Shown here piece after piece: positions 4,511 to 54,400 of a DNA stretch of 64,000 nt. Made by a program: the position numbers and the translations under genes. Source of the stretch: Amphiscolops sp. MND2022 (taxonomy: Eukaryota). Every line of letters begins with the position of its first letter. The stretch's first letter is position 1. The stretch lies in assembly GCA_964187785.1 (NCBI GenBank), contig OZ076409.1, positions 57,786,001-57,850,000 of the forward strand, read 5' to 3'. Under the pieces are notes generated by a model. It saw only the letters and a program-made list of their open reading frames with translations, was not told the DNA's origin and made no database searches.

Positions 4511-4529
4511 TGAAATAAAGTCTCTGGGT

Positions 4530-20336: not shown

Positions 20337-21157
20337 ACCTGGGTTGACCCTCTTACTAGCACCTTGGCTGTCTTGACAAGATCTTGCCAAATTCGTCCTA
20401 CATCTTGGCAACCATGAATCCCATGGCAAAATTTCTATTAAGATTTTACTAAGATGAAAACATTATTCCAATGATCGTATCTTAAGATACCACGATGAAC
20501 AAAATTCTAAGATTATAAAGAACACTATACCTTCGGTACACGCAGCCGAGACACAATCTAAAGGCGCATTTCTTCCAACAACGACTATTTCTACTCGTTT
20601 TCATAATCAAAATGCTCCAACCTGCTGAAAAAAAATTGCATGCAAAAATGTGTGCAAAATTACGATAACGTATTCTGGCTTCCGAAGTTCTGACAAGAAT
20701 CCTAATAACTCCATAACTCCTATTTAGATAACCGGAAATTTTTGTATATTAATAGTTCCAGCGTTCTTTGAGCACGCTACAGCATTCCTATTACTGCTAG
20801 AAACCCTGGTCAATGCCCCGGTTTGGGGTAGTGATTCAGCTCGAAGCTTTTCTGACGCCGTTGTTGGCGACAGTTTTGCAATTGATAGAGCAATTTAATC
20901 AATGCCTCCCTAAATAAACAGCATCAAAGCTTTCAATCAAATTTTATTCCTTGCTAACAGAAAATTATCATGAAAATGAAAACGATGTAAATCTGCATAG
21001 ATGTTGATTTTTGTTGACATCCTTTGACAAAATAGGATTTTTCATGAATTTTTTTTTGAGAACATGGCTCTCTTGATAAGATTTTACCATGAAAAAATAA
21101 ATACCGTGCCAAGATCTTGCCAAGATCTTACTAAGATATCCATGGAGGGTCAACCGG
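20337..21157. mobile_element. MITE of the same family (longer copy)
   Basis: CCTGGGTTGACCCTCTTACTAGCA ... GATATCCATGGAGGGTCAACCGG. Confidence 0.75.
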
Positions 21158-23874
21158 TGTAATCAAACACTAACTGCAATTTGAGCTGTCTGAGAATGGA
21201 CTTCTTCTCTGAAGGTAATTACAATTGACGAATAACTTCATCAATCTAGGAAGTATTCAATTCGAGTCAATTCAGTTTCCTGGAAAAACAATCTCGCTCA
21301 GTTTTCTTGCCAATTAATCATACTTTAGGTCTGTCAAATCCTTGGTTAGGGAATCAAAACCACCAAGAAGAAATAATGAGCAGAAGTAAGTCGGAAACAG
21401 TAGTAATCCCGCCCCAGTTGCAAAAGCAGTCAAAATTTCGTTTCCCTTTTCTTCTTTAGAATCATCTCAAAACTGGCAAAAAAACTAATTTTCATGGAAA
21501 AAATTTCAAGTACAACGGCATTGCATGTATTTTAAAGAAACTAGTTAAATGTAAATCTAACCTTGAATAAATAAACTAGGCTTGATAAATTTGTAAAATG
21601 ATAGTGCTTATATTCTCATACCTTAAGGCATTTTGCCATTTCATCAATTGCAAAGGTAAAATTAGAGTGTTAAAAAATTGTTGATTCATGTAAGGTCAAA
21701 GCCAGAGACTTGGTGGGAAGCAAAAAATGGGAAATAAAGACAAATAAACCAATTTTTTTAAAGCTCAAGTTTGAATCAATTAATTCAATTTGTTTATTTA
21801 TGAGGTCTCAATGGCAAACATCTAATCACGTGGAACACTTGGGGACAGGTGCTTGGAAAATTTCTGTAAATTTACAAGATAATAGCCAGTTGAGAAAATT
21901 GTAGAGATTGGATTTCAATTCTTCAAGTGAATTGAATCCTCAACGGTATAAATAATTCCTTCTCAGGGATAAATCTTTACGTGGGCAAAACTGATATCGA
22001 TTGTAGCAAAATGTCTACAACATATAGAAAATTAATGAGGGCTAAGAATTGCTTCAGTTTCAAATGATACCTATCTTGAGTTCCATTTGAAAGACTATCT
22101 TAAGGTAACTTAATTTGACGTAATGGACAACTACAATTCATGAACAATTCATGTAAATATCAGCAAAAGATTTGAATTGGGCCGTGCGTGGTTCGTAAAA
22201 TATATCGACAATCCAAAACGAGAAAAATAATTCGTGGAAAACAAACTAGATTTGTTCTTATGTTTCTACAATCTTGTAACAAGTGAAAGTTTTCTAAACA
22301 AATCTCACAATACCGAGCATGACAAACTTTACAGAGCAGTTCTGCCGAAAATGAACAAAATCAGAACAAATTGCGGGAAACATTTACCGCTAGTACTGGA
22401 ATGCCAAAATTCAGATTTATCAAAGGTTGAGAAAAACTATCAAACGTCAATTTGGGCAAATTTTCTATAATAAGAAATGGAATCGAACTCAATTAAAGAA
22501 AAATAAACAATGAGAATTGGACAAAGAGGATACAAAGGAAGTCTCGACATTAATTTGGATCCAATTAGCGATTCTATGCTCGGTCTCTAAACTCTCAAAA
22601 CAATTTTTTTAAACGGACTTAAAAGGAAAAAATTGTCTACAATGAGAGACAAGCTAGAATGAAATAAATGGAAAAAGAATAGCGATTGAACTCTATTTTT
22701 TAAATTAAATTACCCTATAGCAAAATCAATGTATTATTCTTCCTTGATACTCTGAAAAAAACGTTCGTAGAGAACCATGTCTGGATTTGTTTTAAAAATG
22801 CGGATCTGTTGATGAATATCTTAACGGGGCGTTTGGGCATTTTTATGGATTCGAATTTAAAACAGAATTGAACATGGAAGCCATGAAGCTTATAATTCTC
22901 GACACGTTTTCGGGTTCAAAAATGCCAGTTTTTTTCTCATTTTAACATTGCCGGAGCCTAAACTGCTGACCTAAAGAAACAAAATACTAACCCAAATAGG
23001 AACTCTAAAAGCTGTTATTACTCGAGCTGCTTTCAATGGATTCAATTAACGTAATTGACAAAATTAATAATAAGTTTATGACGTTCCAATTTGAAATATA
23101 GTACACAAGTCGGAAACTTTTCAATTTATATACTGACTACTGGTTGTAAAAAAATGAAGCCTCGAGATAAAAGACCCATTAATTGAGCAATAAGGTACTG
23201 AAGGCGGTTTCAATAGCCCTTATCCATTAAGCCTTGAGATAAAAAAAATTCATGGTGTAATATTGGACAAAGTGTAATCTTGAGCAAGTTGTTATAACTA
23301 GTCCAGTTAATAATGGACCCAGACTTACGAATTGATCTTACCAGGGTACTTAACAACGAATTTTCTCATGCTTCAAAAATTTATTTTTCTTCGTGTACGG
23401 GAAATTGTCAAAGATAACAAAAAAATTTAATAACCTTCCGATCGGAAAATGGAAGGACGAAAAAATTTAATAACCTTTCGATCCATCGATGGATTATTCA
23501 TGCTCTGTCCTTGAAAAAAAATCCGGAAAAACAAAACAAAAACCGACTGAACTAACTCAATAACGGCGTGAATTTAAAAAAGAGGATGGTTAAATGTTGA
23601 GCAAACTGCATTTTTCTGCTAGCGGGAAACAAATCAATATTTGCCATTTTTATTTTTGAATTATTTTTGCCATCACCACAAAAAAACAGAACTATGAAAG
23701 TTGGTTCCTCAATTATGAACGTCATTCCAGAATGTTTTATTAATTGCCACCTTGCCAAAATCAGATATACTTGAGGCTTTGTTTTTTTTTAAAAAAAAAC
23801 AAAACGAGACAGCATTCAAAAAATGAAGCTGTCATTAATGATTTGTCGACAAATCAATCTTTGAATTAACCGTC

Positions 23875-25403
23875 TGTCACACCCACCAAGATGTGATGGC
23901 TCCGTGGTGCAACTCTAGAAAGGAACAAGCAACGGTACCTCCTAAATAAACTCTTTCGAACTCATGTGGACCCGTTGATAGTGTGTTTTCTTGTGCATTG
24001 TTTTCTTTAAAAAGTCATGTAAATATGATATTTATACTATATTTGCCATGAAAGAACTTTCATTGTTGTGCTAACAAACCCTGTCTTCCCATTAAGAGTC
24101 CTTATGTTGATTAAACAATGAGTTATCTCGCCATCTAATAGTATAACTCGCAAGTTTCTGACTCATCATCATCATCACCGTGATAATCTGCATTTTAGCA
24201 TAGTACTATTATACGGTATTATGCGGATCAAGGTGTGACGTATACTCGTCACTATACGGTTTTGATAATACCATTATGCGGTATTATGCGTTTTGAGGTG
24301 AGATGTATATACGGCATTATAGGTCTTTTATGATAACATTATGCGGCATCCTACGGTTCGAGTAAAAACGATTATACGTCATTATGCGGTTCTCGCAGGA
24401 ATTATTGAATGATCCCAGGACGCGTTCTAATAGCATTTAGAAAGTGTTTCAGCCATATTTAGAAGTTATTTTGAGATATTTTCCAGGGTTTTGCAGTTTC
24501 TTGTCCATAACCACTTCCCATGATGTCATGTAAATGTGCTATTTTTATAATATGAAGTCATTTGACGCAATTCTATTTTTGTGCTGGTTTTCATGATGAC
24601 TCTAATAAAAAGGGGTGTCATGATTTTTAAATATATTTCGTTTTGTAATATAATTGGAAGAATTCATTCAAGATTTGTCTTTCACCAAAAGCAGTTGCTT
24701 TTCAAATGATTGTAAACCTCTTCGATTTCATCACTGTAAACTCTCCGATCTTGTTCTTTTGAGATATTAAAGTCAATTCAAATTCTTCCCCAAAAGCCAG
24801 AAAACATTTTCACTTGAGACGAGATGGGAAATAGACGAAATAGACGGTCCAGAAGACTAGAAACTCCTTCCCCAGAGAGAAGTGTAGAAAGGACCCAAGT
24901 AGAAACGCCAAATACAGGTAATATAACTTTAACTAATCCTGATACTGTTGTCCAAGAAAATTTAGGTGAAAACAACATAGGAGAACAATTAGTCGAACCC
25001 AGTCAAATCAGCACTGAGATTCAAGCTTGGACCCAAATATTTGAACAAAAGAACAACGATAGAATAGAGAAAATGAGAGAAGAAATGGACAATAAACTTG
25101 AAACCATTCTCAGAGAAATAAAATCAAATAAAAGTGCTTCAATAGCAACAAACCCAAGGTCTGAAAATGATGAAACACGAAACATGCAACCTACGGGATC
25201 CAAAGGAAACAAGTCTATAGGAGTACACGCATCTAACAATGAAAATTCAGAAACTGAAGACGAAGATTTTCCTCTTAAGGCATCTAGAATGAAGGATCTA
25301 AAACATCCTGCAAAGCCTTTGTTTCGAGCTGAATCTGATGTAGACGTAACTATCCATTCAGACGAAGAGTCTGATGCAGAGAGCCTAGACGAGGATTATC
25401 ACA
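23875..25403 (+). repeat. 5' LTR
   Basis: Starts TGTCACACCC and ends GGATTATCACA. Matches 38506-40034 except for five substitutions found by eye (24052, 24178, 25028, 25069, 25113). Confidence 0.97.
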
Positions 25404-26515
25404 TGGTGACAGGAGCCAACCGAAAACTCCATAGACAAAGTTATCAAAAATCAAACGACACCATTGGATCCCACGCAGACCTCAATTTACCAAATTTGAC
25501 AACACAACCACCTGACCCAGTGAATCAAATTGCAATTGCAATAGAGAAATTGGCGAACAAAAATTCACAACCATCACTATTTCATCCCAAAAATATACTC
25601 ACCTTCAATGGAAAAAATGAGAAAAATGAAAAGTTCGAATACTTCGAAGACTTGTTTCACACAACACTTCGAATGCAACCAAACCTAACAGAGGACATGA
25701 AGATTAACCATTTTCATGCCCACCTCAGAGGTTTAGCCCTCAAAACATTTAAAAACATACAAAGGACACCAACAACAACCCTAGAAGACATACTCAAAGT
25801 CTTTCGCAGGAAATATGTCAAACCAGAGTCCAGTGCTTCTGCAAAACACAGATTCAACAGACTCTCATTTGACCCAGAACACCAAAAACTCCCGGATTTC
25901 TTAGAAGAACTCCAAGAAAGTGCTGAAAAAGCGTTTGGGGAGAACGCCCACCAAATGATAGAGAACCTACTCTACGCAAAAATGCCTCCCCATCTTAAAA
26001 AGTCCATCAATCAAGCCTATCTTGAAAATGGCACTTACGAACAAATTGTTAAGCATCTCGAACGAGAAATGGAGCTTAATGGTCTAGAGGCTGACGAACC
26101 TCTCGTCAAAACCCAAATGACTGTTACAAAAAAAGAACAAATCACTGAAAAAACTAACAAAAAACCAAATGACAAAGCCAAAAAACAAACTCCAAAAACA
26201 GTACCAGACAAAACCCTCAAGAATGATCAATGCCGTTACTGCAAGGAAACAGGCCACATGATGGCTGACTGCTCCAAATTAGCTAAACGGCGCAAACTTG
26301 AGGAAGACCCCGATGCGGAAAAATGCCACACCTGTAACACACCTGGTCACGATGAGGAAAACTGTTACTTCGGAGCCAATATGGAAAACCGCCCACCGAA
26401 ATGGAACCTGACAGAAGCACAAAAGAAAATTATAGAAGAATACAAACAAGCCAAAAAACCAATCAGACCAAAATCAGAACGATCTCAACAATCCTCATCG
26501 AAGGATTTAAACTAG
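24824..26515 (+). CDS. gag: Gag (563 aa) with two CCHC zinc knuckles; N-terminal 193 aa encoded in the LTR
   Basis: Open ORF; capsid-like region (FNGKNEK...FEDLF...HLRGLALKTF); CRYCKETGHMMADC (26231) and CHTCNTPGHDEENC (26324). Confidence 0.95.
   Translation: MGNRRNRRSRRLETPSPERSVERTQVETPNTGNITLTNPDTVVQENLGENNIGEQLVEPSQISTEIQAWTQIFEQKNNDRIEKMREEMDNKLETILREIKSNKSASIATNPRSENDETRNMQPTGSKGNKSIGVHASNNENSETEDEDFPLKASRMKDLKHPAKPLFRAESDVDVTIHSDEESDAESLDEDYHMVTGANRKLHRQSYQKSNDTIGSHADLNLPNLTTQPPDPVNQIAIAIEKLANKNSQPSLFHPKNILTFNGKNEKNEKFEYFEDLFHTTLRMQPNLTEDMKINHFHAHLRGLALKTFKNIQRTPTTTLEDILKVFRRKYVKPESSASAKHRFNRLSFDPEHQKLPDFLEELQESAEKAFGENAHQMIENLLYAKMPPHLKKSINQAYLENGTYEQIVKHLEREMELNGLEADEPLVKTQMTVTKKEQITEKTNKKPNDKAKKQTPKTVPDKTLKNDQCRYCKETGHMMADCSKLAKRRKLEEDPDAEKCHTCNTPGHDEENCYFGANMENRPPKWNLTEAQKKIIEEYKQAKKPIRPKSERSQQSSSKDLN
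25404..25421 (+). promoter_or_regulatory. Primer-binding site (possibly tRNA-Leu-like)
   Basis: TGGTGACAGGAGCC immediately after the LTR-terminal CA. TGG complements tRNA CCA. Resembles TGGTGTCAGGAG (complement of tRNA-Leu 3' ends) with one mismatch; tRNA identity is uncertain. Confidence 0.8.
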
Positions 26516-29500
26516 AAACGCCACGCCTTTACAAAAAATCTCCACAAAAACCAAACTCATCTGATGACTGGCAGCATCAGTTGAGCCCAAAACCCACAAA
26601 AGCAACACTCGTCCAAAAAGACCTGATAACAGAAACTTCTCAACAATCATTGACCGAATACCACACTGAAGACTTATACGAACTCCTCCGTGATTCACCG
26701 GACAACTACTTCATCAAACAACAAACCCACCCCGAAATTGACTCAAAACCCGATATTCACCACAATTCCCCCGTTAAAAATTATGTCACCATAAACACTT
26801 CTTGCGATGATAAAAAACAACCTCTATTAAGTGAAGACCTCACCGAACACATACAATTTGACAGAGAACGAAACGTGTCATATCTCCCAATTTCAACTTC
26901 TTTGACATTGAAGCGAAAACGACATATGTACTACATACCGATGGACTTCGAAAAACTGACACTTGATGGTCTTATCGATACTGGAGCTCTCACAAGTGCA
27001 ATCTCCGAACAAGACCTCAACAAAATCAAGCTGCTCGCAAATGAAGCAATTAAAGAAACCGGTCCACCAAACTTCCAAATTATGGTGGCAAATGGACAAC
27101 TAGAAGTCCCCATTGGTACAGTATTACTAGAATTCGAAGTCGCAGACTTCATGTTAAAAGAAAACTTCATCATTATGAAAAACCTACCAAACCCCTTAAT
27201 CGGATTATGTTTCCTTCGAAGGAACAATGCACTTTTTGATGTCAATCAAGGCATCTTAACTTTTCCCTACCTCTCGATGCAGCTCAAGCCTGATACACAA
27301 ACAGCAATACGCCAAGCAACACCATTGTTTGCCGAAAATACCTATACCCTACAACCAGGGGAAACACTTGCCATAGCAAGCAAAATGCCTCATCTGATGG
27401 ATCATGATGCGACAGGAATTGTCACACCATCACAACAATTTGAAAACCACGATAGCCTATTTATCACATCATCACTCAGCACAATCAATAATAATGCTAT
27501 CGGGTATCAAATCATCAATTTTTCGGAATTGCCATATACAATAACCCTTGACACCCATCTAGCGGACTTTAAAATTCTCACCCCCGAACAAATCAAGCAC
27601 ATCCAACCCGTAGACCCAGCAGTACTATCTTTCATGATACAACAAGAGGAAACTACGGAAGTGTACATCAACGAACTCCTCAAAGTACCACAACCAAATT
27701 CTGAACAAGAATCGTACTGGTTTCCTACCCCGGAAGACCCAGGCGATCCCGCAACATATACTCCAATACAACAACGTATATACAACGAACTCCTTGAGTT
27801 AAAAGAACTCGAAAAACTGAACCCACATGATAATGAAACATCCAGGAAAACATTCCTCTCAAATTTCGACTGGACAGATACAACACTTAGTTCAGAAGAA
27901 CGACAAGAGATTGAAGAGATTCTGGTCGAATTCCACGACATTTTCGCCAGACATCGCTTTAATATAGGGATCAACCGCGAGTTCAAAGTGAAATTAACGC
28001 CAAATGACGACAGACCAGCTTATAGTCAAAGTTTACCGACTCCCATTAACCTCAAAGATGACATCACAGTAGAACTTGCGCTCCTACATAAATATGGTAT
28101 AATCACAACCTTACCATTTTCCAAATACGCAAGCCCAATTTTTGCACAGCGCAAACCTAATGGGCGCCTTAGGCTCCTTGTAGACCTCCGGAAAATTAAT
28201 AATCTCATCACTAAAGATTATGTCAACAATAACCACCCGGTAAGCACATTATCCGATGCAGCCCAACACATGGCAGGGAAAAAACTTTTCTGCAAATTGG
28301 ACTGCTCTCAGGCTTACCACTGCCTTCAAATGGCAGATTACCAATCTATCCAGATGCTTGCTTTCAATTTCGCAAGCAGAACATTTGCTTATCGTCGCCT
28401 TGCTCAGGGCCTCAGCCGATCCCTTTCTGCATTCTCAAGCTTCATGAGGGAATACCTGGACAGAGCAATCAAAGCTGACCAATGTGCCCAATATGTTGAT
28501 GACATTGGCATTGCAGCAAACGACACAAAACAATTGTACATCAACATCAAAACCGTCTTTGAATGTATCAGAAACGCTGGATTAAAACTTTCCATGTCCA
28601 AATGTCATTTTGGAGTTAAACAAGTCGATTTCCTGGGTCGCACCATCACACCAGATGGAGTTGCCCCTCAGGCCGACAAAGTAAAAGATTTCCTCGCAAA
28701 ACTCAGATTTCCAAAATCAAATAAGGCACTACAAAGGTATATTGGATTCCTAAACTATTACCGAAACTATATACCACGCCTTTCAGAACGGCTATCCCCG
28801 TTCTTCAATCTCCTCAAAGAAACTTCCAAATTCTATGTACCAACAAACTTGGTAGAAGAATTCACAAACCTTAACAAACTTTTGGAAAACTCTTGCCAAT
28901 TAGCTTTGAAACAACCATTGAAGAACAAACAACTCATAGTCATGTCCGATGCAAGTTTCACTGCAGCAGGATACGCTATCATGATCGAAGACGATCCGAA
29001 TCAAAAACTCCAATCCAGACGCAAAACATATGCACCCATAGCGTTTGGTTCAAAAACTTTCAACCCAACACAGACGAAGATGTCAATTTATGCGAAAGAA
29101 TTCCTTTCTATATATTTTGCATTCGTCGAATTTGGACACCTCATGTGGGGAAGCAAATTCCCAGTCATCGTGTTCACTGACAACCGGTCAGTAACCCGGT
29201 TTTTTCAAACGAAAATGATCCCACCAGCACTTTGGAACGCATGCGATTACGTTTTACAAAACAATTTTGTAATTGCCCATGTCGCTGGCTCAATGAATAC
29301 TGCTGCAGACTTCCTATCAAGGACAGAAGTCGCCCCAACAGAAAAACTAGAATTAACAATTCGCAATGACATTCACACGAAAGCAATTGAGGTAAAGATC
29401 CAGTCATCTGGAATTGCCGAAGAAGAACAAATCTATGTTCTCCCAGATGATGAAATCGACGAAACCCAACTTTGGGAAGAAAAACAAAATATCCGAAATC

Positions 29501-31398
29501 AAGCTCAAACTGAAACACACAACGACCCCGAAAATGAGGTCGCTGAACTACAACAATTTCACAAACCCACCTCAGGATTAATCTCTATTTCATCAGGATA
29601 CTTCAAGGACAATGCCAAAATCCGCCTCGAGCAGAATAATGACGTAGTCCTCAGAAACCTGAGAGCAAAAATCGAAGGCAACCCCTTCGACGAGAATGAG
29701 TTGGCATCAGACTACAGATACCAACACTACCTACAAAACATAACAAGAATAGAAATTAAACAAGAAGTCCTCACCCGAAAATACTATACGGACACAGGAA
29801 CCACATCTCACTACCAGATTCTCCTACCGGTTCAACTTTTAGATGAACTCTTACAAGCCCTTCATGGCCATAATTCAAACCACCCAGGAATCACGAAAAT
29901 GATTCAGGAAGCAAGACAAAAATATTACTACCCATGTATGACTAAATACATTAAAAAATGGGTCAGTAACTGCCAAGTCTGCATTCAAACGAAACGTATC
30001 AACAACGATCTCCTCAGAACCGAACTTCTTAATTGCCCAGAATGGGATCTTGGCCCGGAAGACATTCTACAGATGGATATTCTACCAAACCTCCCCTCTA
30101 GCGGAGGTTATGATCACATCATCACAGCAATAGATGTCTTCTCGAGATACTTGTTTGCTTATCCCGTGACTCGTATTACCGCCACAGCAGTATCAAGAGT
30201 CATCATGGATATACTATGCAAGCACACCTACCTTCCAACAACGATAATCACAGATTTAGGCACTCAATTCAACGCTCAAGTAACTCACGCAATTGCTGCA
30301 GTGCTGGGAATTGAACTTAAACACGCAAAAATGAAACATGCCCAAACAATAGGACTCCTCGAGAGAACCCATGCCTCAGTGAAAACACACCTAAAAGCTG
30401 CAACAGGCGAATTCAGGAATAACTGGCATAAATATCTCCCGTTAGCAGTCCTTAACCATAACACATCATACCATGCATCACTCGGTTGTGAACCTTCACG
30501 AGTCTTCCATGGCAGAATACCACATAATATCCTAGACTATAAACTCGGATATAACCCTAACCCACGATATCAACCACAGGCAGATGTGGCAGAAGAAATA
30601 CAAAAACGCATGAAAAACCTTTTAGATCAAACAAAGAAAAATATCATGCAATCCTATCTCAAGTACAAAGCCTACTATGATAGGAAAGCCAAAGCAGCAC
30701 CGCTCGAAACGACGGACTATTGCTACATTCTCAACCCAAAAGCCGACACGCAAGCGACGAAAATACCATTTCGAGAATTCAGATGGTGTGGTCCATATAA
30801 AGTGGAAAAAGTGCTCCCTAACAATAATTATATTGTCAGGAGACTTGGTACTAACAAAACGCAACTGCTACACAGGATACGCCTGCGAAAATTCACTCCG
30901 CAAGCTCCATTAGCAGATATTTTTGTCCGCGAAACTGATTGGCAAAATGATGACCAGATACCTATAGCAAATGATGATCTATATGCCCAATCATGGAATA
31001 CAAATTTTGGATCTAATCCGTTTGAAGATGGTCCTTCAGAATACTCAGAAGACACTGAGGAAACCGAATATACTCCAATCCAAATACCTAATGATAACCG
31101 CCCTCCCTCCCCAGGATCTTCAAAAAATAGTGGGGGGAGCCCAGTGGAACAGACCACTGAACCAGATCAAAATTGCGACAATCATGAAAATGAAATTCCA
31201 CAACACATCAGTGAAGATGATCAAAATACCCAAAAAACTCAAAAAGAACCAAATAATTCATCGGTTGATGATACCCAAAAAACCCTAGAAAATTCACAAA
31301 ATACCCCATTGCAAGAAGAACCCATAAATACTCGTGGTGAAAAATACAACTTACGCCCCAATCCCAACCTAAACTACTCTGACTCTTACAGATACTAA
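26401..31398 (+). CDS. pol: Pol polyprotein (aspartic protease, RT, RNase H, integrase), probably expressed as a Gag-Pol -1 frameshift fusion
   Basis: Uninterrupted 1665-codon ORF. LIDTGA (26977), YVDD (28492), SDAS/KE/TDN/ADFLSR RNase H, H-H...CQVC integrase zinc finger, D-D-E (QMDIL, TDLGTQF, LERTH) and GPY (30790). Confidence 0.98.
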   Translation: MEPDRSTKENYRRIQTSQKTNQTKIRTISTILIEGFKLETPRLYKKSPQKPNSSDDWQHQLSPKPTKATLVQKDLITETSQQSLTEYHTEDLYELLRDSPDNYFIKQQTHPEIDSKPDIHHNSPVKNYVTINTSCDDKKQPLLSEDLTEHIQFDRERNVSYLPISTSLTLKRKRHMYYIPMDFEKLTLDGLIDTGALTSAISEQDLNKIKLLANEAIKETGPPNFQIMVANGQLEVPIGTVLLEFEVADFMLKENFIIMKNLPNPLIGLCFLRRNNALFDVNQGILTFPYLSMQLKPDTQTAIRQATPLFAENTYTLQPGETLAIASKMPHLMDHDATGIVTPSQQFENHDSLFITSSLSTINNNAIGYQIINFSELPYTITLDTHLADFKILTPEQIKHIQPVDPAVLSFMIQQEETTEVYINELLKVPQPNSEQESYWFPTPEDPGDPATYTPIQQRIYNELLELKELEKLNPHDNETSRKTFLSNFDWTDTTLSSEERQEIEEILVEFHDIFARHRFNIGINREFKVKLTPNDDRPAYSQSLPTPINLKDDITVELALLHKYGIITTLPFSKYASPIFAQRKPNGRLRLLVDLRKINNLITKDYVNNNHPVSTLSDAAQHMAGKKLFCKLDCSQAYHCLQMADYQSIQMLAFNFASRTFAYRRLAQGLSRSLSAFSSFMREYLDRAIKADQCAQYVDDIGIAANDTKQLYINIKTVFECIRNAGLKLSMSKCHFGVKQVDFLGRTITPDGVAPQADKVKDFLAKLRFPKSNKALQRYIGFLNYYRNYIPRLSERLSPFFNLLKETSKFYVPTNLVEEFTNLNKLLENSCQLALKQPLKNKQLIVMSDASFTAAGYAIMIEDDPNQKLQSRRKTYAPIAFGSKTFNPTQTKMSIYAKEFLSIYFAFVEFGHLMWGSKFPVIVFTDNRSVTRFFQTKMIPPALWNACDYVLQNNFVIAHVAGSMNTAADFLSRTEVAPTEKLELTIRNDIHTKAIEVKIQSSGIAEEEQIYVLPDDEIDETQLWEEKQNIRNQAQTETHNDPENEVAELQQFHKPTSGLISISSGYFKDNAKIRLEQNNDVVLRNLRAKIEGNPFDENELASDYRYQHYLQNITRIEIKQEVLTRKYYTDTGTTSHYQILLPVQLLDELLQALHGHNSNHPGITKMIQEARQKYYYPCMTKYIKKWVSNCQVCIQTKRINNDLLRTELLNCPEWDLGPEDILQMDILPNLPSSGGYDHIITAIDVFSRYLFAYPVTRITATAVSRVIMDILCKHTYLPTTIITDLGTQFNAQVTHAIAAVLGIELKHAKMKHAQTIGLLERTHASVKTHLKAATGEFRNNWHKYLPLAVLNHNTSYHASLGCEPSRVFHGRIPHNILDYKLGYNPNPRYQPQADVAEEIQKRMKNLLDQTKKNIMQSYLKYKAYYDRKAKAAPLETTDYCYILNPKADTQATKIPFREFRWCGPYKVEKVLPNNNYIVRRLGTNKTQLLHRIRLRKFTPQAPLADIFVRETDWQNDDQIPIANDDLYAQSWNTNFGSNPFEDGPSEYSEDTEETEYTPIQIPNDNRPPSPGSSKNSGGSPVEQTTEPDQNCDNHENEIPQHISEDDQNTQKTQKEPNNSSVDDTQKTLENSQNTPLQEEPINTRGEKYNLRPNPNLNYSDSYRY
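26506..26512 (+). promoter_or_regulatory. -1 ribosomal frameshift slippery heptamer T TTA AAC
   Basis: X XXY YYZ heptamer in the gag frame immediately before the gag TAG; pol is in the -1 frame and open across the site. Confidence 0.8.
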
Positions 31399-31582
31399 AA
31401 AAACACACACAGAAGAATCGTTCTCTTATCTCTTTCCTGTCTTTTCAGTTCGTAACTAGACGAATTATCAGTTCATTCAAAGAAGATACAACTAAATGAG
31501 TAAAAAGTCGGATAGAATAAGGCTTCCGAAACAAACAAAACAAACTAGTAATACACAGATCCAAAGTCAAGCGAGAACACTC

Positions 31583-34500
31583 TCAATTCGTCTTCTTGTC
31601 TTTTCCAGACTTACTCTTCATTTTTTTTGATGCTCCTCCAGCTTCCAGGTCTCCACAGCGAGGAACTTCCAGGCTAACTCTGTTTAGTGAAGGGTCAGGG
31701 GACGGCGAACTATTTACACTGCTGTGCCGACTAACACTAGGTGTTGTACTGCTTGAAGTTATGGGTGGCTTCTCGGTTCGTAAAACGGCTTTCCTGTAGC
31801 CAGTCTCGAATTTTCCCACTAACGCTGCTCGACGCGGGCTACTTCCTTTAAGGAAATTCCATACGGAAAATTTCTTGTCGGTAAGTAGATCCTCACCACG
31901 TCCCAGAAGCCGGAAGACTCGAGGGATAGATTTTGGATCACGATACAGACTTGATACGTGTGGGACAGTTAAATAGGAAGCCTGTAAACTCCGCAAGCAT
32001 GACTGAAAGGACTCAGTATTACCTTCTAAACGTAGAACTGGAACAGTGAATTCTGGAGACATTTCGATAAGAGGAGGCAAGCATAAGCAAGAGTACTTAT
32101 AAAGCTGAAGCAACTCTGGACGACACCGGATCTCATAATGAGACGACAAAAAATGTACCCAATCTTCGTATTCTGGTATTGGTCCAGCACGGAGTTTAGT
32201 AACAAAGGAACGATACTGACTAATGATCTTTACTTTATCGCTGCTTGAAATCCACCCGGCACTAGAAAAGTAAGACGACAGCTTCTCAATTGCACTGGAA
32301 TAGTGTTCCTCGGGACCCTCGATCATAACACTGGAGTCAAAAGCTGACAACCCCCTGATTAAGTCCGACTTTATGACATCGTGGCACAGCAGTAACTTGC
32401 AAAAAGCCTTACAAAAGGCGATCGATTGGTCCACAAATTTCCCCGGACGGGGTAACCTACTTGCCAAAACCAACTTGTGGAAGTCTTCATTCAAAATAAA
32501 TTCACTAGACGTCTTGTAAGGAAGCTCAGTTTGGTCGAGATCAATAGTGAGATATCTGTCCCAATCGGAAATACTCCCTAGCACACTATCGGGTAGTATA
32601 CTTTGTAATTGACTGTATATGAAGACGGCAAATTGATTGTACAAACGAAATCCGCCTTCAATGCGCTTCTGTACTTCCGAAAAGGCCGAATTATCTGAAA
32701 CATACCAAAATCTACGTAATGGAACACATTTGTTCGGAATATATTATTGCACCAACACGTTTGGACAAACAACACAAAAACAGCACTAATTGATCAGCTA
32801 TGTCTGAATCAATTTCATATGCTGCATAGTAATATGAAACGAGAGCAAACGTATAGTAAATATCTACACTATACGGAATATCATACGGGAACTATACAGC
32901 ATTATGCGGATTGAAGCGCAATGAATACTCGCCATTATACGGATTGAAAGGAATTAACTATGCGGCATTATGCGGATCAAGGTATGACGACTATACGTCA
33001 CCATGCGGATCAAGGTATGACGACTATACGTCACCATGCGGATCAAGGTATGACGACTATACGTCACTATGCGGATCAAGGTATGACGACTATACGTCAC
33101 CATGCGGATCAAGGTATGACGACTATACGTCACCATGCGGATCGAGGTGCGACGACTATGCGTCACTATGCGGAAATAGCAGTGACGATTATATGCTACT
33201 ACCTTAGGCATATACAAATGATTATACGCAAATATGCGAACGGAGATACGATGACTATTCATCATTGTTACAAAATTGAAAGCAAATGCATGTGCTACAG
33301 TAAATGACTGGAAGAATGGATAAATGACGACCTCACGGCTCCTATTTCGAAACGGGAAGGCACGAATTACAAAATGATTGAACAGAAAATTTAAAAACCA
33401 GTAACAAATGATACTACAATACTTTATCAGAAGATGTGGAGCAACTAACAGTGGTCTAACACGCATCTGATGATGAAGAGTCTGGCTAAATAGGCTGTAT
33501 CCAAGCGGAAACATTCGTCGAGAGTGTTCGGCTGAAATAAGAGAAAATATATTGAGTAACAAAGTAATTCCAAAGAAATGGGATTATTGGGAAGTGTAAT
33601 AACCTCTCTCATGTGGAATCGGTATACTGGGAGTCTCGCTACCTGGTTCAAATGCTCCCGAACACGATCCCAATGGTTTGACAATTCTTCAATGATAACT
33701 GATGCTTCATCTAATGAGTACTCGAGGCGAATTACACACTGAAACGAGAGACTTTAAGATTCTGTGAAACAAATTTGAAAACAGCCAAGAGAAATACCTT
33801 ATGAAGGGTAGGCAAGCTCTGCAACCAGTCACGGTCAAGTGCAGTCCTCAATTTCATGAGGAGAAAGTCCAAAATTGTGCGAAAATCGTGACGTTCAATT
33901 ATTTGGACTGTCGGCAGTGTTAAACTAACTTCGAGGTCGGTAGTCCCATAAGTATTGACAATACATGGTCTTTTTGAGCCTGGTAAAGTGTTTGACAAGC
34001 AATCATCTAACTTGTCTCCAACCCCAATAAGTGCAATACACGAAGGGGGAACGTCAAAAAGGCTGAGGAAAGAGGCAAGCAAATTAAGAATCCTCCGGGG
34101 GAGTAATGGTCCTCGAGGAGAACTGCCTAAGCAGACACGGTGAAAGACATTCCCCGACCAGAATGATAAAATCACAAAGGAATGGGTTGGTGAATGCTGT
34201 ACTGCTAGTGAATATGCCCCAGAAGAAGTGGTCATGGTAACGCAGTAGTTCATCAATTCTCTGAACATGTACACGAGAATTCCCTGTTGAAAAAACATAG
34301 CATGAATAACAACTTAGTGAGGGAATGCTAACTAAGATCAGCGAGGTAGAGAAAAGTACTTACAAACACTCGTTGCTCACTCCAATTTTGGGTGGTCGAT
34401 TGGTCATTGGACATCAGTCGAGACAATTCCTCGTAGATCATTGTGAGGCTCTTAATGTGACCCCCATGTCTGAGTAATGTTCGATTTGAAAGAGGACTTT

Positions 34501-36110
34501 GTCGGTCGGACTAGATACGACTCCTAGTGCAGGTACAGCAGATTGGCCGACCAAAGGATGACGTGAGTCCAATTGGGGGGCAATTGGGTGGGAGTCTCTA
34601 GCCACCTTCTTTGCTTCCTGAAGGGCAATCCCTAGAATTTCCTTCCCATCCTTGTCAAACAGTGGGGTGCCAGGAATTTCCATGCGAATTCGGTGTTCTT
34701 TCGTCAAATGAGTGTCTGAACGGTAATGCGAAATTAATTCCAACGGTCCCCGGCTCATCAGCGATAGTTCCGTCCTACATACTCTACACCACCACTTGTA
34801 AGGTGTTTTCTCAGCATCCAGAGGACCGGTTGCGGAAAACTTAAGTACTGGATGTTTCCTGAGCATACTGACTGTCAGTGAGTACCTAGGTCTCCTCCTC
34901 TTGCCATGTGTTGTCTGTTGCCTTTCATGCCCTTCAGATGACAGAGGTCTGGACGATGAGGGTCCGGGAAGGTCTTCCTGACTTGATGTAGCTAGGAGTG
35001 TAGGATCCAGAGTGTGATCCACGACAGTTAGCGATAAGTGCTGATTAGCATCTACCCCTTCGCCGGACATGAAGTTCTGTGGGATTCGTTCTAAGACACT
35101 ACTTAGTGTCAGAATCTCCTGCCGAGTGACGTTAAGGCTGGGATAGGCAACGCCAGTAAAGTCCCCTTCAGTAGGAGCAGTGCGGGTGGTTTCTTGAAGT
35201 CCAAGATTTCCAATCTCATAATTGGCGGGGTCATCGAGTAGAGTGGGATTTTCCCCCGTAGCGTCATCAAGTAAAGTTGGAGTCAAATACTGCCCGAGTT
35301 GGAAAGGAGAAGCCTGGGCAATTTGGGGGGCAGGATAAGTCCCGGTAAAGTCATCTGTAATACTGGGTTAAAATCGCCCATGTTAGTGGTGGGGGTAGTT
35401 GCAGCTGTTTCACCAAGATTGACACGTCTATCTGGGGAGTGTAATTCAGCTCTCTGTTTTGGTTCCTGTGCTGAGCAGTTCTCTTCACGATTCACAGATG
35501 CAGGGGTAGTTACTACTTCTATACCCTCGTCAATGCTGAGAGGTTGAGCACTAGGAGACACAAAGAGAATTTGGAGACCGGCTGTTCTAGGCGAAGCTAC
35601 TCCTAGTGGGGTAAACACTTTGTCAGGCGTCTTTACAGAAGGAGATTTTTCTGAAGTGGCGGCAGTTTTGTGAGGCGATTTTTCTGGTGAAGTCCGTGAA
35701 GTCCAGAGTTCAACTAAAACAATGATCTATTACCTAATGAAAGAAGGAAGTGGATCTGATCTAGCAAGCGAAACACGTTTGAAAATGCCTGAAACCGGAC
35801 GCGGGGACAGGAAATAAAAGTAGAACGGAAGTAGCTTAGAAGTTCGAAGCGGAAACGTTTCAAAAAACCCGAATTTGGACTAGACATTTTCGCTAGCCAT
35901 TTTCAAGTTGCAAGCCTGGCCAGCTTTGCAAAAAACCAAAAAGTCTCAAATCTGAACCAAAATGAACCAAATCAAAACAAATGAGTTGAGCTTACCGGAC
36001 ATCGGATTGAGAGGTAAATCACTCCAAAAGTCGTCGCGGTGATGTGGCGATTGATCTTTTCTGGATCTTCGTTTGCCTGAAGAACCTGACCCGCCAGGTG
36101 TAGAATCCAT
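31583..36110 (-). CDS. Antisense multi-exon gene inside the retrotransposon: low-complexity N-terminus, C2H2/BED-like zinc finger, degenerate hAT-transposase-like region (this copy appears to carry lesions)
   Basis: ATG at 36110 (MDSTPGGSGSSGKRRSRK). Frame-preserving GT-AG introns at 35995-35714, 34363-34284 and 33797-33739 join the ORF-track pieces 35283-35618, 34438-35286, 33732-34298 and 33445-33684. The last exon is the 353-aa ORF ending at 31583. Motifs WCRVCRTELSLMSRGPLELISHYRSDTH and PELLQLYKYSCLCLP. Apparent frameshifts near 35365 and 34480; exons between 33460 and 32700 are unresolved. Confidence 0.75.
32971..33168 (+). repeat. 33-bp tandem array (6 copies) TGCGGATCAAGGTATGACGACTATACGTCACCA, with degenerate flanking copies
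   Basis: Directly visible; each unit contains the inverted repeat TGACG-N6-CGTCA. Confidence 0.95.
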
Positions 36111-36454
36111 TATCCCAAAAGAGTAATGAAATTATGCGAATTTGAAATTTTCCTGCTGGAAATGTTATGTAAGGAAGTCGGGGAAGATATGGATGAACTG
36201 CTTCTGTATGTGTGAACTACGACTAAAGACTGGACAAGGAAATTAACAATAAGTTGACTGAAAATGCAATATACGTAAGAAGGCGTGGCGTAAAAGAAGG
36301 CAAAGAGCAAATGATGCAAGTTTGCGCAAATGTGCAAGAGAATACTATAATCTGATTGGTTAATTAAATGTCAATTTCGTCTGCCAGCGTGATTGATTGA
36401 CTCATTGCATAACGCCAATGGCTAATTTAAGCATAGATGTTGTTTTGGCTGATA

Positions 36455-36700
36455 GTATACGGCAATATGTGGATTGCAAACGCAGAATATGCGGTAGTAT
36501 GCGGGTTGCAGAAGAAGAATATGCGGCAGTATGCGGATCGAGCAAAGACGAGCATGCGGCAGTATGCGGAGTACAAGAGAAGAATATGCGGCAATATGCG
36601 GATTGCAAGAGAAGAGTATGCGGCAGTATGCGGAATGCAAAGGAAGACTATGCGGCAATATGCGGTTCCTGCAGTGACGTATACTCGTCATCCTGCGGTT
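36455..36700 (+). repeat. Degenerate ~30-bp tandem array rich in TATGCGG(CAG)TATGCGG
   Basis: Repeated ATATGCGGCAGTATGCGGA units, ending in GTGACGTATACTCGTCA as in the LTR array. Confidence 0.85.
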
Positions 36701-37520
36701 CTCGCTGCATATTCTTAATAGGATGAATTAATGCAGTTCGTGGCTGGAATTGAACAGATAAAGAAGTATTACGTAATATTATGAAGAAAATTAAACACTC
36801 TCAATGATAAACACGTGTGATATTGTTGATGCTTAATCACAACGTCAGCTTTATGTTGAATTTAGTTCATTTAGTAAATTTCGAACTGATAATGTTCTGG
36901 GAGCTTATAAAAAAGAAACAATTGTCAGAACCGGAAGTTATACGTCAAACCATCACCCCACACGCATTTTTCAAATGCGGGACCAAGTTTAACACATGTT
37001 TTTCTTGGAATTAATGGTCGATTTAGCTGTGCTATTAATCAAAAGTGAAACATGCTTCATAACTCTTTTCATCATTTCATTAAATTAGTCATGTAAGACT
37101 AGATAAAGTTTTTCTCCCAACTTTTCAATAAATATCTTCACGGAGGCATTTACTTACTTTGATGTCCCGTTGAATTTTGTTTATATATCATTTAACTGTC
37201 TGGAAATTGTCGGAAATCCAAGTGATGAGCGGCAATCCGATGATGTGTTAAGTAAAACACCTTTTATGGAAATTGTTTATGAGTTATTGCAAGTGAGTCT
37301 CATGACATGACTCCTAGTAAAACCCTTATAAGGGGAATGGAGGACTCGAAAAAGCATGACTCTCAACTTTTCCGCGGGATTTTGTCAAAAACAGAAGAGA
37401 GAAGAAAATCAACCACCATATGGTCTTAATCAATCTGAAATTCGGCTGCCTTTCATAAACTGATAACTTGATACTTAAAATAATTCTCCCATTAATTTTA
37501 ACTTGAATAATTTTGAAAAA

Positions 37521-38549
37521 ATGGACAAGCTTCAGTTCAATTTCGATGAAGATAGCCTTTACTCTCCTCTATCTCCCGATGTCATCGATATCTCCAGCGA
37601 GACAGAAGAAACCTTCTCAGTTGCCCCAGGAAACATATCGCAATTGGGAGAGAAATTCAGAGTAAATCCGGCAGAAAACAATCTGATGTCAGCATTTGTT
37701 GGATCTTCATTAGCGACACTGTTTCCCAGTTCAAACGTACTAGCGGGGCACGGTGATGCTGCATGTGTGGAAGGAACCCAAATAGAGCAAGACCTTATAG
37801 AGTTGATGAACGACTCTCAAGACGACCCTGCAGGCTCTCCATCGTCGTTCATCGACAGTGAATTTGAAGAAGGAAACCTGTTCCCATGGACAGAAAATAG
37901 GGATGCAGCCCTAAATACAAATAGTGATGGCCGACCATGTGCCAGAGTGTTACCTATTGTGCGAGAAGATCAAGACGAAGGAGGAATCTTGCCAACCCCA
38001 ACGGTTACACAGGAGCCCAGTAGAGAACTTGGCCAAGCGAATATGCAAAGCATGCTCATAAATGACCCTATGGACTACGAAATACATAGCAATGTAGCCC
38101 AGTCACAACAACCAGTCATGAGGACCATGCAAGGATTCAACTTGTCCCCAATGTTATTCCCAATCCCGTTGGAGGAGACAACACAGGGTACCCGCCAAAC
38201 ACCGTTCGTCGTGCAACAACCCATGCAGCTAGGATTCCCATTCGACATGGTACATAGCCCAAACGTCTTGTTAATACCAGCCCAAGAAAGACAAGGCATA
38301 AGACTACTACCAACGGTCATGCCAAATGTGGCAGGGCATTGTGATTTCTGTGGGAAATGTTTCGATCAAATAGCATTAGAGACGCTTGGACAATATCTGG
38401 TCGCCACGGAGTACGACGGTGAAACTGTCAAGGAGAGAGCCATCAGGTCGAAAGCCTTTATCCACGGCTTCGAGGCAGCATTGTTCCTTTTTAAAAATGC
38501 GGGACTGTCACACCCACCAAGATGTGATGGCTCCGTGGTGCAACTCTAG
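37521..38549 (+). CDS. Extra sense ORF (~342 aa from ATG 37521), acidic/Pro-Gln-rich with C-terminal HCDFCGKC; unknown function, not env-like
   Basis: Long open ORF in the env position with no evident signal peptide or transmembrane segment. TATA-like CCTTATAAGGG near 37323. The stop lies 44 nt inside the 3' LTR, followed by AATAAA at about 38576. Confidence 0.7.
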   Translation: MDKLQFNFDEDSLYSPLSPDVIDISSETEETFSVAPGNISQLGEKFRVNPAENNLMSAFVGSSLATLFPSSNVLAGHGDAACVEGTQIEQDLIELMNDSQDDPAGSPSSFIDSEFEEGNLFPWTENRDAALNTNSDGRPCARVLPIVREDQDEGGILPTPTVTQEPSRELGQANMQSMLINDPMDYEIHSNVAQSQQPVMRTMQGFNLSPMLFPIPLEETTQGTRQTPFVVQQPMQLGFPFDMVHSPNVLLIPAQERQGIRLLPTVMPNVAGHCDFCGKCFDQIALETLGQYLVATEYDGETVKERAIRSKAFIHGFEAALFLFKNAGLSHPPRCDGSVVQL

Positions 38550-40034
38550 AAAGGAACAAGCAACGGTACCTCCTAAATAAACTCTTTCGAACTCATGTGG
38601 ACCCGTTGATAGTGTGTTTTCTTGTGCATTGTTTTCTTTAAAAAGTCATGTAAATATGATATTTATACTATATTTGCCATGATAGAACTTTCATTGTTGT
38701 GCTAACAAACCCTGTCTTCCCATTAAGAGTCCTTATGTTGATTAAACAATGAGTTATCTCGCCATCTAATAGTATAACTCGCAAGTTTCTGACTCATCAT
38801 CATCATCATCGTGATAATCTGCATTTTAGCATAGTACTATTATACGGTATTATGCGGATCAAGGTGTGACGTATACTCGTCACTATACGGTTTTGATAAT
38901 ACCATTATGCGGTATTATGCGTTTTGAGGTGAGATGTATATACGGCATTATAGGTCTTTTATGATAACATTATGCGGCATCCTACGGTTCGAGTAAAAAC
39001 GATTATACGTCATTATGCGGTTCTCGCAGGAATTATTGAATGATCCCAGGACGCGTTCTAATAGCATTTAGAAAGTGTTTCAGCCATATTTAGAAGTTAT
39101 TTTGAGATATTTTCCAGGGTTTTGCAGTTTCTTGTCCATAACCACTTCCCATGATGTCATGTAAATGTGCTATTTTTATAATATGAAGTCATTTGACGCA
39201 ATTCTATTTTTGTGCTGGTTTTCATGATGACTCTAATAAAAAGGGGTGTCATGATTTTTAAATATATTTCGTTTTGTAATATAATTGGAAGAATTCATTC
39301 AAGATTTGTCTTTCACCAAAAGCAGTTGCTTTTCAAATGATTGTAAACCTCTTCGATTTCATCACTGTAAACTCTCCGATCTTGTTCTTTTGAGATATTA
39401 AAGTCAATTCAAATTCTTCCCCAAAAGCCAGAAAACATTTTCACTTGAGACGAGATGGGAAATAGACGAAATAGACGGTCCAGAAGACTAGAAACTCCTT
39501 CCCCAGAGAGAAGTGTAGAAAGGACCCAAGTAGAAACGCCAAATACAGGTAATATAACTTTAACTAATCCTGATACTGTTGTCCAAGAAAATTTAGGTGA
39601 AAACAACATAGGAGAACAATTAGTCGAACCCAGTCAAATCAGCACTGAGATTCAAGCTCGGACCCAAATATTTGAACAAAAGAACAACGATAGAATAGAC
39701 AAAATGAGAGAAGAAATGGACAATAAACTTGAAACCATTCTCAAAGAAATAAAATCAAATAAAAGTGCTTCAATAGCAACAAACCCAAGGTCTGAAAATG
39801 ATGAAACACGAAACATGCAACCTACGGGATCCAAAGGAAACAAGTCTATAGGAGTACACGCATCTAACAATGAAAATTCAGAAACTGAAGACGAAGATTT
39901 TCCTCTTAAGGCATCTAGAATGAAGGATCTAAAACATCCTGCAAAGCCTTTGTTTCGAGCTGAATCTGATGTAGACGTAACTATCCATTCAGACGAAGAG
40001 TCTGATGCAGAGAGCCTAGACGAGGATTATCACA
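38506..40034 (+). repeat. 3' LTR
   Basis: Near-identical copy of 23875-25403, followed by the TSD CCGTC. Confidence 0.97.
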
Positions 40035-40042
40035 CCGTCTGA
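39455..40042 (+). CDS. 3'-LTR copy of the Gag N-terminal ORF (195 aa), terminating in flanking DNA
   Basis: Same as gag residues 1-193 except W>R, E>D and R>K; reads through the TSD to a TGA 8 nt outside the element. Confidence 0.6.
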   Translation: MGNRRNRRSRRLETPSPERSVERTQVETPNTGNITLTNPDTVVQENLGENNIGEQLVEPSQISTEIQARTQIFEQKNNDRIDKMREEMDNKLETILKEIKSNKSASIATNPRSENDETRNMQPTGSKGNKSIGVHASNNENSETEDEDFPLKASRMKDLKHPAKPLFRAESDVDVTIHSDEESDAESLDEDYHTV

Positions 40043-40631: not shown

Positions 40632-40705
40632 CTGTTCGGGACTCGAACTCCTGAACCCCTATGTCACAAGTATGCGCATTAACCAACTGTGTCACTGGGA
40701 CACTG
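40632..40705 (-). repeat. tRNA-like/SINE head fragment
   Basis: Minus strand GTCCCAGTGACACAGTTGGTTAATGCG ... GAGTTCGAGTCCCG (A and B boxes); no complete cloverleaf. Confidence 0.45.
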
Positions 40706-40709
40706 TATA

Positions 40710-41598
40710 CCCAGTGTTCGAAGCCATGGAACGCTTGCCATGATCATGGTTAATCTTGCTTAATCATGGTTAACCATGGTACCCTTGCCAAGATCATGGC
40801 TAATCATGATACATGGAACGCTTGCCAAGATCATGGCAAGATCATGGCAAGATCTTGACAAGATAACCATGGTAAGACATGTAAGCTGGTATTAATTGTG
40901 CATAATTTATTCTTTTCGCAAAAATTCTTTGTCGTCTGCAATTTTTGAATTAGCCATTGTAATAACTTTGGACATAATATTTATTGATTGAAAATAGTTT
41001 TTTAATTGAAAATTATCAAAAACTTGCACAGTAATTTGCTGCACCTATTGACCGAGTTTTGTTACTTGAGAGCACGGCATTGTTACTACTATCATAAATT
41101 ATCATACAAAGCAAACTCCGAATCAAGTTATTGCAACTTGCGGGATTTGCGATATCGGTGTGAAAACCAACTTTTCTAGCTATGATTTGTTTACAATTAT
41201 GCAAATCATGCTATTACCTGATCTATTGAGGTAACGGGTTCTAATTACTGAAGTTCGAGAATGCAATAAAAACTCAAAATGGTCGGAGCAAAAACATTTT
41301 TCCTTTAATGTCTTGACTACCAATTTTTCTTCTGTTTAACCCTATACATGTCTGTTTTTTGGTCCCAATAAATTTTTAGATACTAGTTACAATTTGAAAA
41401 TAAGAGCTCTGAATTTTCCAAAAATTTCGCTAATGTTACCATGGAACCCTTGCCAAGATCATGGTTAATCATGGTTAGCCTTTGCACGATCTTGCATGGC
41501 CATGGCATCCTTGCCAAGATCATGGCAAGATCTTGGCAAGGCTACCAAGGAACTTGCCATGGATCTTGGCAAGGATGCCATGGCTTCGAACACTGGGT
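40710..41598. mobile_element. Non-autonomous TIR element flanked by TA
   Basis: CCCAGTGTTCGAAGCCATGG ... CCATGGCTTCGAACACTGGG; subterminal GCCAAGATCATGGC arrays related to the 9226/20337 family. Confidence 0.85.
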
Positions 41599-54100: not shown

Positions 54101-54400
54101 CTTTTGTTATATTGATCTTGATTGCCATTGGCTCTGAATTTGCCAAAAAGCAGTGCATTGTCTTTTCTTTTCTGATTGCACATTATTTCAAGATGGTCTT
54201 TTCTGACGCAGTAATTACACGTGGCCTCCTGTCCTTAGCTTTTTTTGAGGTGGTCAAGCGTAAAATTGCCTGCGCTGTATCTCCAGCATTCTCTTGTATT
54301 GTGGTGACTTCTGCTTCCTGCCAGACGTGATGTAATCCAGAAACAGGTGTTAGAGTTGTCATCATCGTCGTTTGCTCGCATTACCATGTCGATGACTAAC
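51200..54400 (-). pseudogene. Decayed Gypsy element (protease and integrase remnants)
   Basis: FKAMIDSGSAVTIF in ORF 53680-54183; HFGHS...W...CAEC and VSVDSYPGWPNALF integrase remnants at 51570-51960. Confidence 0.75.

Follow-up and report, generated by a model that had tools for sequence, protein, structure and literature searches.

A young Ty3/Gypsy element of Amphiscolops sp. MND2022 whose antisense gene is a probable hAT-type transposase derivative and a candidate trans regulator

Contig OZ076409.1 of Amphiscolops sp. MND2022 (assembly GCA_964187785.1) carries, in the 64-kb stretch at positions 57,786,001 to 57,850,000 that was analysed as a whole (the window), a 16-kb Ty3/Gypsy retrotransposon at window positions 23875 to 40034, with a multi-exon gene that runs antisense and sits after pol and before the 3' long terminal repeat (LTR). 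The protein of this gene is probably derived from a hAT-type DNA transposase. A reading is proposed here, to which we give about even chances, that the captured and catalytically dead transposase is a trans regulator of the Gypsy element that carries it.

The insertion is very young, and the Gypsy element is recently active. Its two LTRs, 1529 nt each and bounded by TG...CA, differ by 5 substitutions and by no indel (p=0.0033), and they are flanked on either side by the target-site duplication (TSD) CCGTC, so that paired TG...CA repeats stand with a TSD in the 4-6 bp range. Both gag and pol are open; pol encodes protease, reverse transcriptase (RT), RNase H, integrase zinc-binding and integrase core domains in the Gypsy order by Pfam, the RT motif YVDD is kept, and the integrase D..E spacing is 35. 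The cargo region between pol and the 3' LTR (31399-38505) measures 7107 nt and holds the antisense gene, a divergent spacer of 1410 nt and, in sense orientation, open reading frame 3 (ORF3). A preliminary description of this DNA had reported LTRs differing at about 5 of 1529 nt, an exact TSD, intact gag and pol, about 7 kb of cargo, and a layout in which gag-pol faces an antisense gene, followed by a spacer of about 1.4 kb, ORF3 and the LTR; all of this agrees with the present analysis.

The origin of the antisense protein was approached by fold ranking against 48,161 chains, for which two of its exons were modelled separately. The model of the middle exon (85 sequences, predicted local distance difference test score, pLDDT, 81) has the RNase H topology with an RNase H-like core, and the chain ranked first is the Hermes transposase (8edg_A), with model residues 1-119 on chain residues 144-267 (Z 6.9, root-mean-square deviation, rmsd, 3.7, 113 aligned). 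The same chain is ranked first for the model of the last exon (64 sequences, pLDDT 78), in which residues 1-280 lie on chain residues 240-596 (Z 5.2, rmsd 7.0, 180 aligned). Weight is given to the hAT assignment because one chain tops both lists and the two exons match it in collinear order. Among solved structures, no other insertion-domain transposase appears in the top 50 rows of the ranking, although one may still be related. Foldseek returned integrases, Mos1 and three Hermes entries for the middle exon at E-values of 0.005-0.04 and no match for the last exon, for which Atlas had no usable match either. Furthermore, the exon upstream of the RNase H-like exon encodes a finger, C-x2-C...H-x5-H-x4-H, conserved at 98-100% in 63 relatives; as leads only, Atlas gives zf-BED (11% of members), zf-C2H2_12 and FAM200-ZBED5 at scores of 0.88-0.90, and Pfam zf-BED matches none of the 63 finger-exon members. 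The models argue with good confidence for a hAT-type transposase origin of the antisense protein. The antisense gene had been left without an identity in the preliminary description; it exists as a family, and it is now likely hAT-derived.

Catalysis by Hermes requires D180, D248 and E572 (PMC2533014; this and the other sources cited are drawn on in excerpt). The column assigned to the first D holds Q in 60, E in 10 and D in 2 of 85 sequences, while among the 85 residues at the column assigned to the second there are 42 G, 25 D and 14 N. The column assigned to the E holds P in 34 of 64. The DDE positions so assigned are thus mostly not acidic, and the triad of an active hAT transposase is probably lost. 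Given a hAT-type origin, the nuclease is very probably dead. The family, which is likely unable to cut DNA yet is conserved and numerous, therefore requires another vehicle.

The antisense gene appears, with fair support, to be spliced with exon ends at GT/AG sites, because family conservation ends at these sites. The donor motif at 34363 is present in 58 of the 64 relatives (of 120) that extend that far, and column conservation falls past it from 96% to 54% and then to 31%; at 33797 the motif is present in 81 of 93 such relatives (of 120), and conservation across it falls from 96% to 18%. The predicted introns measure 59-80 nt with one of 755 nt, and the last four exons are phase-compatible. 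The first of the two short exons is matched by 6 relatives (42-73% identity) and the second by one of those 6. The preliminary description had called the gene spliced, and family conservation at the exon ends makes this likely. Relatives of the last exon form 233 clusters at 50% identity and are 22-78% identical among the 150 listed; those of the finger exon form 154 clusters at 90%, of which the best 120 contain 823 sequences, with at least ten members in 28; and those of the middle exon form 130 clusters. An informative name is attached to none of these clusters. The basic tail occurs in 11 of 16 long relatives, and no longer or fused form of the last exon was found among 3850 candidates, which is weak evidence. 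Scans of viral, metagenome and genome contigs found none of the relatives' loci. The open frames 32860-33583 and 36397-36727 were rejected as genes, being translations of repeat arrays. Elsewhere in the window, weak matches to the middle exon (11443-11631, plus strand, E 0.006) and to the last exon (17892-18056, plus strand, E 3e-4) may be aged remains of a related element.

A candidate target is present in the same element. The heptamer TATGCGG occurs in the element 24 times on the plus strand and not once on the minus strand, and only once in the other 48 kb of the window; 20 occurrences on one strand stand against 0.31 expected. These sites form dense arrays of one orientation in non-coding regions, namely in both LTRs (period 65), in the long intron (33) and in the divergent spacer (32), as is the case for VANC and TnpA targets.

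Based on these features, a model was proposed in which a Gypsy lineage would have captured, in antisense, a hAT-type DNA transposase gene with its introns and would have kept the catalytically dead product as an accessory protein. Reverse transcription copies the sense genomic RNA alone, from which introns in sense have already been removed by splicing; a gene with introns can therefore last in a retroelement in antisense only, and this orientation would let the introns survive here. The protein is predicted to bind the element's own TATGCGG arrays, and once bound it would regulate both the LTR and the divergent promoter by acting in trans, most likely by activating or de-silencing them. The BED fingers of hAT transposases bind short subterminal repeats. 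VANC proteins bind short same-orientation motifs, which the elements encoding them carry tandemly amplified within introns and upstream regions (PMC5735166), and a 2026 preprint reports that transposases can activate cognate copies and repeatedly turn into regulators through loss of catalytic residues (10.64898/2026.08.24.746577). Since array binding is predicted from these three precedents, a regulator acting on the TATGCGG arrays is by analogy a proposition that we hold as readily true as false. Trans action would explain how a fresh copy has an intact gag-pol but a broken antisense gene. A more specific version, in which a large and still active animal Gypsy lineage has domesticated a whole spliced hAT transposase as a trans transcription or anti-silencing factor in the VANC manner, with cognate arrays in the LTR, the intron and the internal promoter and with cassettes swapped between subfamilies, so that a class I element would use a system made from a class II enzyme, is offered tentatively and seems to us somewhat doubtful. 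The observed/expected ratio of CpG is 0.80-0.94 in the element and its flanks, which are not depleted, and hence no sign of methylation backs the anti-silencing version.

The question whether the antisense gene belongs to the element was addressed by its edges, by junctions and by shared contigs. Its stop lies 184 nt from the pol stop. No pair of terminal inverted repeats (TIRs) with a TSD (8 bp in hAT) was found around it, a search that old decayed ends would escape; 11-mer inverted pairs with at most 2 mismatches and a flanking duplication of at least 3 nt were sought between 31399-31590 and 36111-37521, with 98 chance pairs. A recent nested hAT insertion with ends of its own was rejected on this account, and cargo unique to this copy was rejected because the ORF3 cluster and the antisense family are multicopy. 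These were the two ways in which the preliminary description had thought the cargo might prove foreign. Six of 505 family proteins contain a segment matching the 5' LTR-gag-pol zone (E<=0.05), against none of 505 reversed decoys. In P0538/P0539, from other families, the antisense gene is fused to the antisense primer-binding site (PBS) and LTR end (E 0.012), and in P0129/P0494, also from other families, to antisense pol (E 1.6e-4), joins such as internal deletions of the same layout in other families would give; P0324 has a weak sense-frame match only. We consider it probable that the cargo is borne by the element lineage. As a separate observation, natural chimeras of related families have the antisense gene joined straight to the PBS, once in sense (P0302) and once in antisense (P0538/P0539), and recombination may be especially frequent at the PBS.

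The sharing of contigs by gag, ORF3 and the LTR fragments is that expected if all belong to a single family with some 30-35 copies: the gag cluster has 29 members, the cluster of LTR-borne gag fragments 40 and the ORF3 cluster 31, and among the other 14 ORF3 contigs listed, with contigs told apart by their length, 6 are shared with gag and 6 with the LTR-fragment cluster. The variant of the antisense gene found here has a different distribution, since only 2 of its 17 other contigs appear on the list of 26 that bear the gag/ORF3/LTR subfamily of this copy, against 0 of 74 in a control (p=0.033); two contigs of the gag/ORF3 subfamily bear instead a variant 64-67% identical to it (P0341 and P0439, 96% alike). 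The occurrence of the variant mostly on contigs without this gag subfamily points to cassette exchange or to another carrier, and this copy is most simply read as a mosaic, with exchange of the cassette between sister subfamilies. The preliminary description had asked whether all full-length copies keep both accessory genes. ORF3 accompanies this gag subfamily, on 6 of 14 other listed contigs, but the antisense variant mostly does not (2 of 17), so that retention of the same two genes by all copies is not supported. Its picture of a recently active lineage with accessory genes stood as to recency and lineage-wide cargo, with the qualification that the antisense gene is broken in this copy.

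Several observations weigh against the proposed regulator or parts of it. The two Hermes Z-scores are below 8 and within 1 of those of unrelated folds, neither exon model has a Foldseek match at E<=0.001, and profile searches of Pfam and of the PDB assign the hAT family to no antisense member; the Pfam hAT match is absent from all 64 last-exon members, and the PDB searches of the antisense protein returned nothing at E<0.04. The catalytic columns were set by strand ends and by motif spacing rather than by residue-level superposition, and the second catalytic position is still D in 25 of 85. In this copy, the largest antisense exon has two frame breaks relative to P0211, a family cluster in which 9 of 15 listed members have a length of 433 aa, one near 35360 and one near 34480; both are probably genuine and not errors of assembly, because no indel is seen in gag, pol or the LTR pair and the second one covers several bases. 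The independent units of TATGCGG are three arrays and not 20 sites, as tandem repeats inflate the count. The junction evidence consists of a few weak matches in a repeat-rich setting, and P0302 unites a related gag start with the finger exon in reverse orientation. The 2 of 17 contigs in common are also far below the 7-8 of 12-15 that the exons of one gene share.

One rival of the proposed regulator accepts the same dead hAT capture and gives it another job, in which the protein would bind chromatin or the element's DNA for copy-number repression, for tethering or targeting of integration, or for competition with a host silencing factor, while the arrays would serve a host factor or ORF3. The evidence on origin and conservation fits such a job equally, conservation of the whole transposase body beyond the finger suggests an oligomeric or DNA-end-binding role, and the young copy transposed or persisted despite its broken antisense gene. 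The arrays, however, lie in the gene's intron, in its upstream spacer and in the LTR, as for VANC targets (PMC5735166), and we take this alternative to be unlikely, though with an appreciable chance. It is also conceivable that the antisense gene moves on its own, as a non-autonomous DNA transposon or another hitchhiker inserted in this and other elements, and is no fixed gene of the Gypsy element, which would suit the hAT-like origin, the introns, the broken state of this copy and the scarcity of its contigs with this gag/ORF3 subfamily. Such a unit is improbable in our judgement, given that no TIR and TSD pair was found at the cargo edges, that the gene ends so close to pol, that its intron holds the LTR motif, that overlap with the subfamily exceeds the control, and that another vehicle is needed for a dead transposase whose frame stays open in hundreds of copies across 22-60% identity.

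An RNase H-fold protein of other descent, from a Mutator-, Kolobok- or Dada-like transposase or from a host gene, would account for the low Z-scores and for the lack of a sequence-level match; the insertion-domain transposases that can be ranked are those with solved structures only, and the Hermes rank would then reflect few solved relatives. Nevertheless, one and the same chain tops the ranking for each of two exons, with the matched ranges in the order of the chain, and the finger leads are of the BED/ZBED type, so that we regard this possibility as improbable too. The dead hAT-type transposase as a predicted trans regulator is thus retained as the preferred reading, and the features of the element are collected in the table.

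Table. Features of the Gypsy element and its cargo, in window positions; exon boundaries of the antisense gene are predicted.
Feature	Position	Strand	Basis
Left target-site duplication, CCGTC	23870..23874	+	letters
5' LTR, 1529 nt, TG...CA; includes 65-bp-period TATGCGG array (about 24198-24392) and gag codons 1-193	23875..25403	+	
gag, 563 aa, start within LTR	24824..26515	+	ORF, Pfam, cluster
PBS-like stretch, in gag reading frame	25404..25415	+	
pol, -1 frame, protease-RT-RNase H-integrase, 1680 codons	26356..31398	+	ORF, Pfam, motifs
Antisense multi-exon gene, whole span	36110-31583	-	predicted exons
Exon 1, ATG at 36110, GTAAGC donor; uncertain	35996..36110	-	this copy's letters
Possible micro-exon, start 35788; uncertain	from 35788	-	
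Large predicted exon with a disordered part, a basic KRRR motif, a BED-like C2H2 finger and a helical region; frame broken twice	34364..35713	-	
Predicted RNase H-like exon, Hermes first in ranking	33798..34283	-	model, family alignment
Short predicted exons, 33738-33604 and 33531-33450	33450..33738	-	relatives
Predicted intron, 755 nt, 33-bp-period TATGCGG array (about 32889-33174)	32695..33449	-	
Last exon, 370 codons: helical domain, then basic tail	31583..32694	-	family, model
Divergent spacer, 1410 nt, 32-bp-period TATGCGG array at 36456-36665	36111..37520	.	letters
ORF3, 342 aa, cluster of 31	37521..38549	+	ORF, cluster
3' LTR, 1529 nt, TG...CA; second copy of gag N-terminal 193 codons	38506..40034	+	
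Right target-site duplication, CCGTC	40035..40039	+	letters

ORF3 is lineage cargo and not an env gene. Its stop lies 44 nt inside the 3' LTR, and its N-terminal half is acidic (net charge -24 over the first 170 residues), followed by a Q/P-rich middle and a C-terminal CxxCxxC. No Pfam match and no transmembrane segment were found in it, the maximum hydropathy over 19 residues being 1.1, and an envelope protein was rejected for want of a membrane anchor and of a Pfam match. Twelve of the 15 listed members of its cluster are full length, and the other 14 listed are 93-98.5% identical to this copy. Judged by its composition, ORF3 is likely a second nuclear accessory factor.

The gag start lies inside the 5' LTR, where 193 codons (24824-25403, 580 nt) are read before the frame continues through the PBS. 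The same start position is found in 12 of 14 other gag members among those listed, which makes it a trait of the family, and a literature search for a gag start inside an LTR found nothing. The PBS region begins with TGG immediately after the 5' LTR, and a short atypical tract precedes the 3' LTR. Pfam matches of gag to Ty3_capsid, Retrotrans_gag and zf-CCHC are weak and all under the curated cut-offs. A -1 frameshift from gag to pol is suggested because a candidate slippery heptamer, TTTAAAC at 26506-26512, just precedes the gag stop; a strong structure was looked for 3' of it and none was found. The nearest solved RTs are of the foamy-virus type (E 3e-31) and of Ty3 (E 3e-24). Each 3' LTR or solo LTR also bears an open frame of 193 codons that reads into flanking DNA (here 39455-40034), and in the cluster of LTR-borne gag fragments 14 of 15 listed members reach the LTR end and then diverge.

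In the rest of the window, open frames at 53680-54234 (minus strand) and 15346-15945 (plus strand) resemble, by eye, decayed gag or protease of other LTR elements, and neither matches the gag or pol of this element at E<=0.01. Long inverted repeat pairs at 5035-5650/17945-18558, 4693-5016/14045-14496 and 356-541/11202-11378 are 75-93% complementary and probably represent dispersed repeats that point in opposite directions. A family of dispersed copies, whose unit is 11 bp, occurs at 9231-9302, 21096-21154, 40704-40862 and 41440-41603; those at 40704-41603 are inverted relative to each other at a distance of about 0.9 kb, an arrangement that resembles a small non-autonomous DNA element. Tandem arrays lie at 1920-2061 (period about 24 bp) and 4125-4521 (period 31/147-178 bp).

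The closest precedent in layout is found in plants. Elements of the Retand, Grande and RIRE2 type have a long region between pol and the 3' LTR (2.9-6.6 kb there and 7.1 kb here), antisense ORFs that are conserved, arrays of tandem repeats and a proposed DNA-binding regulatory role (PMC11963269, PMC7264820). Their domain, in contrast, is TRP28/Transposase_28 (PF04195), reported in these texts in flowering plants only, whereas Pfam finds no match to PF04195 in this element or in antisense-family members. The word "intron" is absent from the two main texts (PMC11963269, PMC7264820), whereas the gene described here appears to be multi-exon and to encode a whole transposase body of BED finger, RNase H fold and insertion domain, and it is accompanied by a second, sense ORF. 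The invertebrate Gypsy-like elements with accessory coding, namely the ORF3 types of bdelloid rotifers (PMC5408684) and Burro of planarians (PMC6431247), differ in their extras, which are env, GDSL esterase, DEDDy exonuclease and apoptosis or ubiquitin domains, and no antisense transposase derivative is noted in the excerpts of these sources.

As compared with Hermes, a BED-like finger, an RNase H fold, a helical insertion and a C-terminal part are predicted in the same order, but the DDE positions are mostly non-acidic and TIRs were not found. Domesticated dead derivatives of hAT transposases exist, of the ZBED and FAM200 types; here many copies probably reside inside a retrotransposon, rather than standing as autonomous DNA transposons or as host genes in single copy. 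Complex retroviruses have an antisense gene (HBZ of HTLV-1, a regulator) and nef, a 3' ORF overlapping the LTR, and the present element resembles them in having an antisense gene and a last ORF that enters the 3' LTR. It differs in the absence of env, in an antisense gene with apparently an internal promoter region rather than the 3' LTR, and in unrelated proteins. The organisation like that of a complex retrovirus, which the preliminary description had proposed, is thus seen in the layout, while env is absent and plant Retand/Grande elements are nearer as a precedent. VANC of VANDAL and TnpA of Spm share with the present system an element-encoded protein and short same-orientation tandem motifs in introns or upstream regions (PMC5735166, 10.64898/2026.08.24.746577), and the DNA-binding part of TnpA has been traced to a transposase (10.64898/2026.08.24.746577). 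Those are plant DNA transposons in which binding and de-silencing were demonstrated (PMC5735166, 10.64898/2026.08.24.746577), whereas in the present case a retrotransposon is the carrier and the binding is a prediction; the main text of 10.64898/2026.08.24.746577 does not contain the words retrotransposon, LTR and Gypsy. In the open-access literature, Repbase and subscription journals apart, no account was found, by title or opening of the abstract, of an LTR element with a spliced and dead hAT-type transposase among its conserved cargo.

The antisense accessory ORFs of LTR retrotransposons have been described as unknown in origin and function (PMC7264820). For the present one a likely origin can be named, namely a DNA transposase, and since the element itself contains a candidate target, the function can be tested directly. 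If the proposed reading is true, retrotransposons too would domesticate transposases, besides hosts and DNA transposons, and an animal element would possess a system of self-regulation or anti-silencing so far documented in plant DNA transposons, which could help to explain how one Gypsy lineage attained hundreds of copies.

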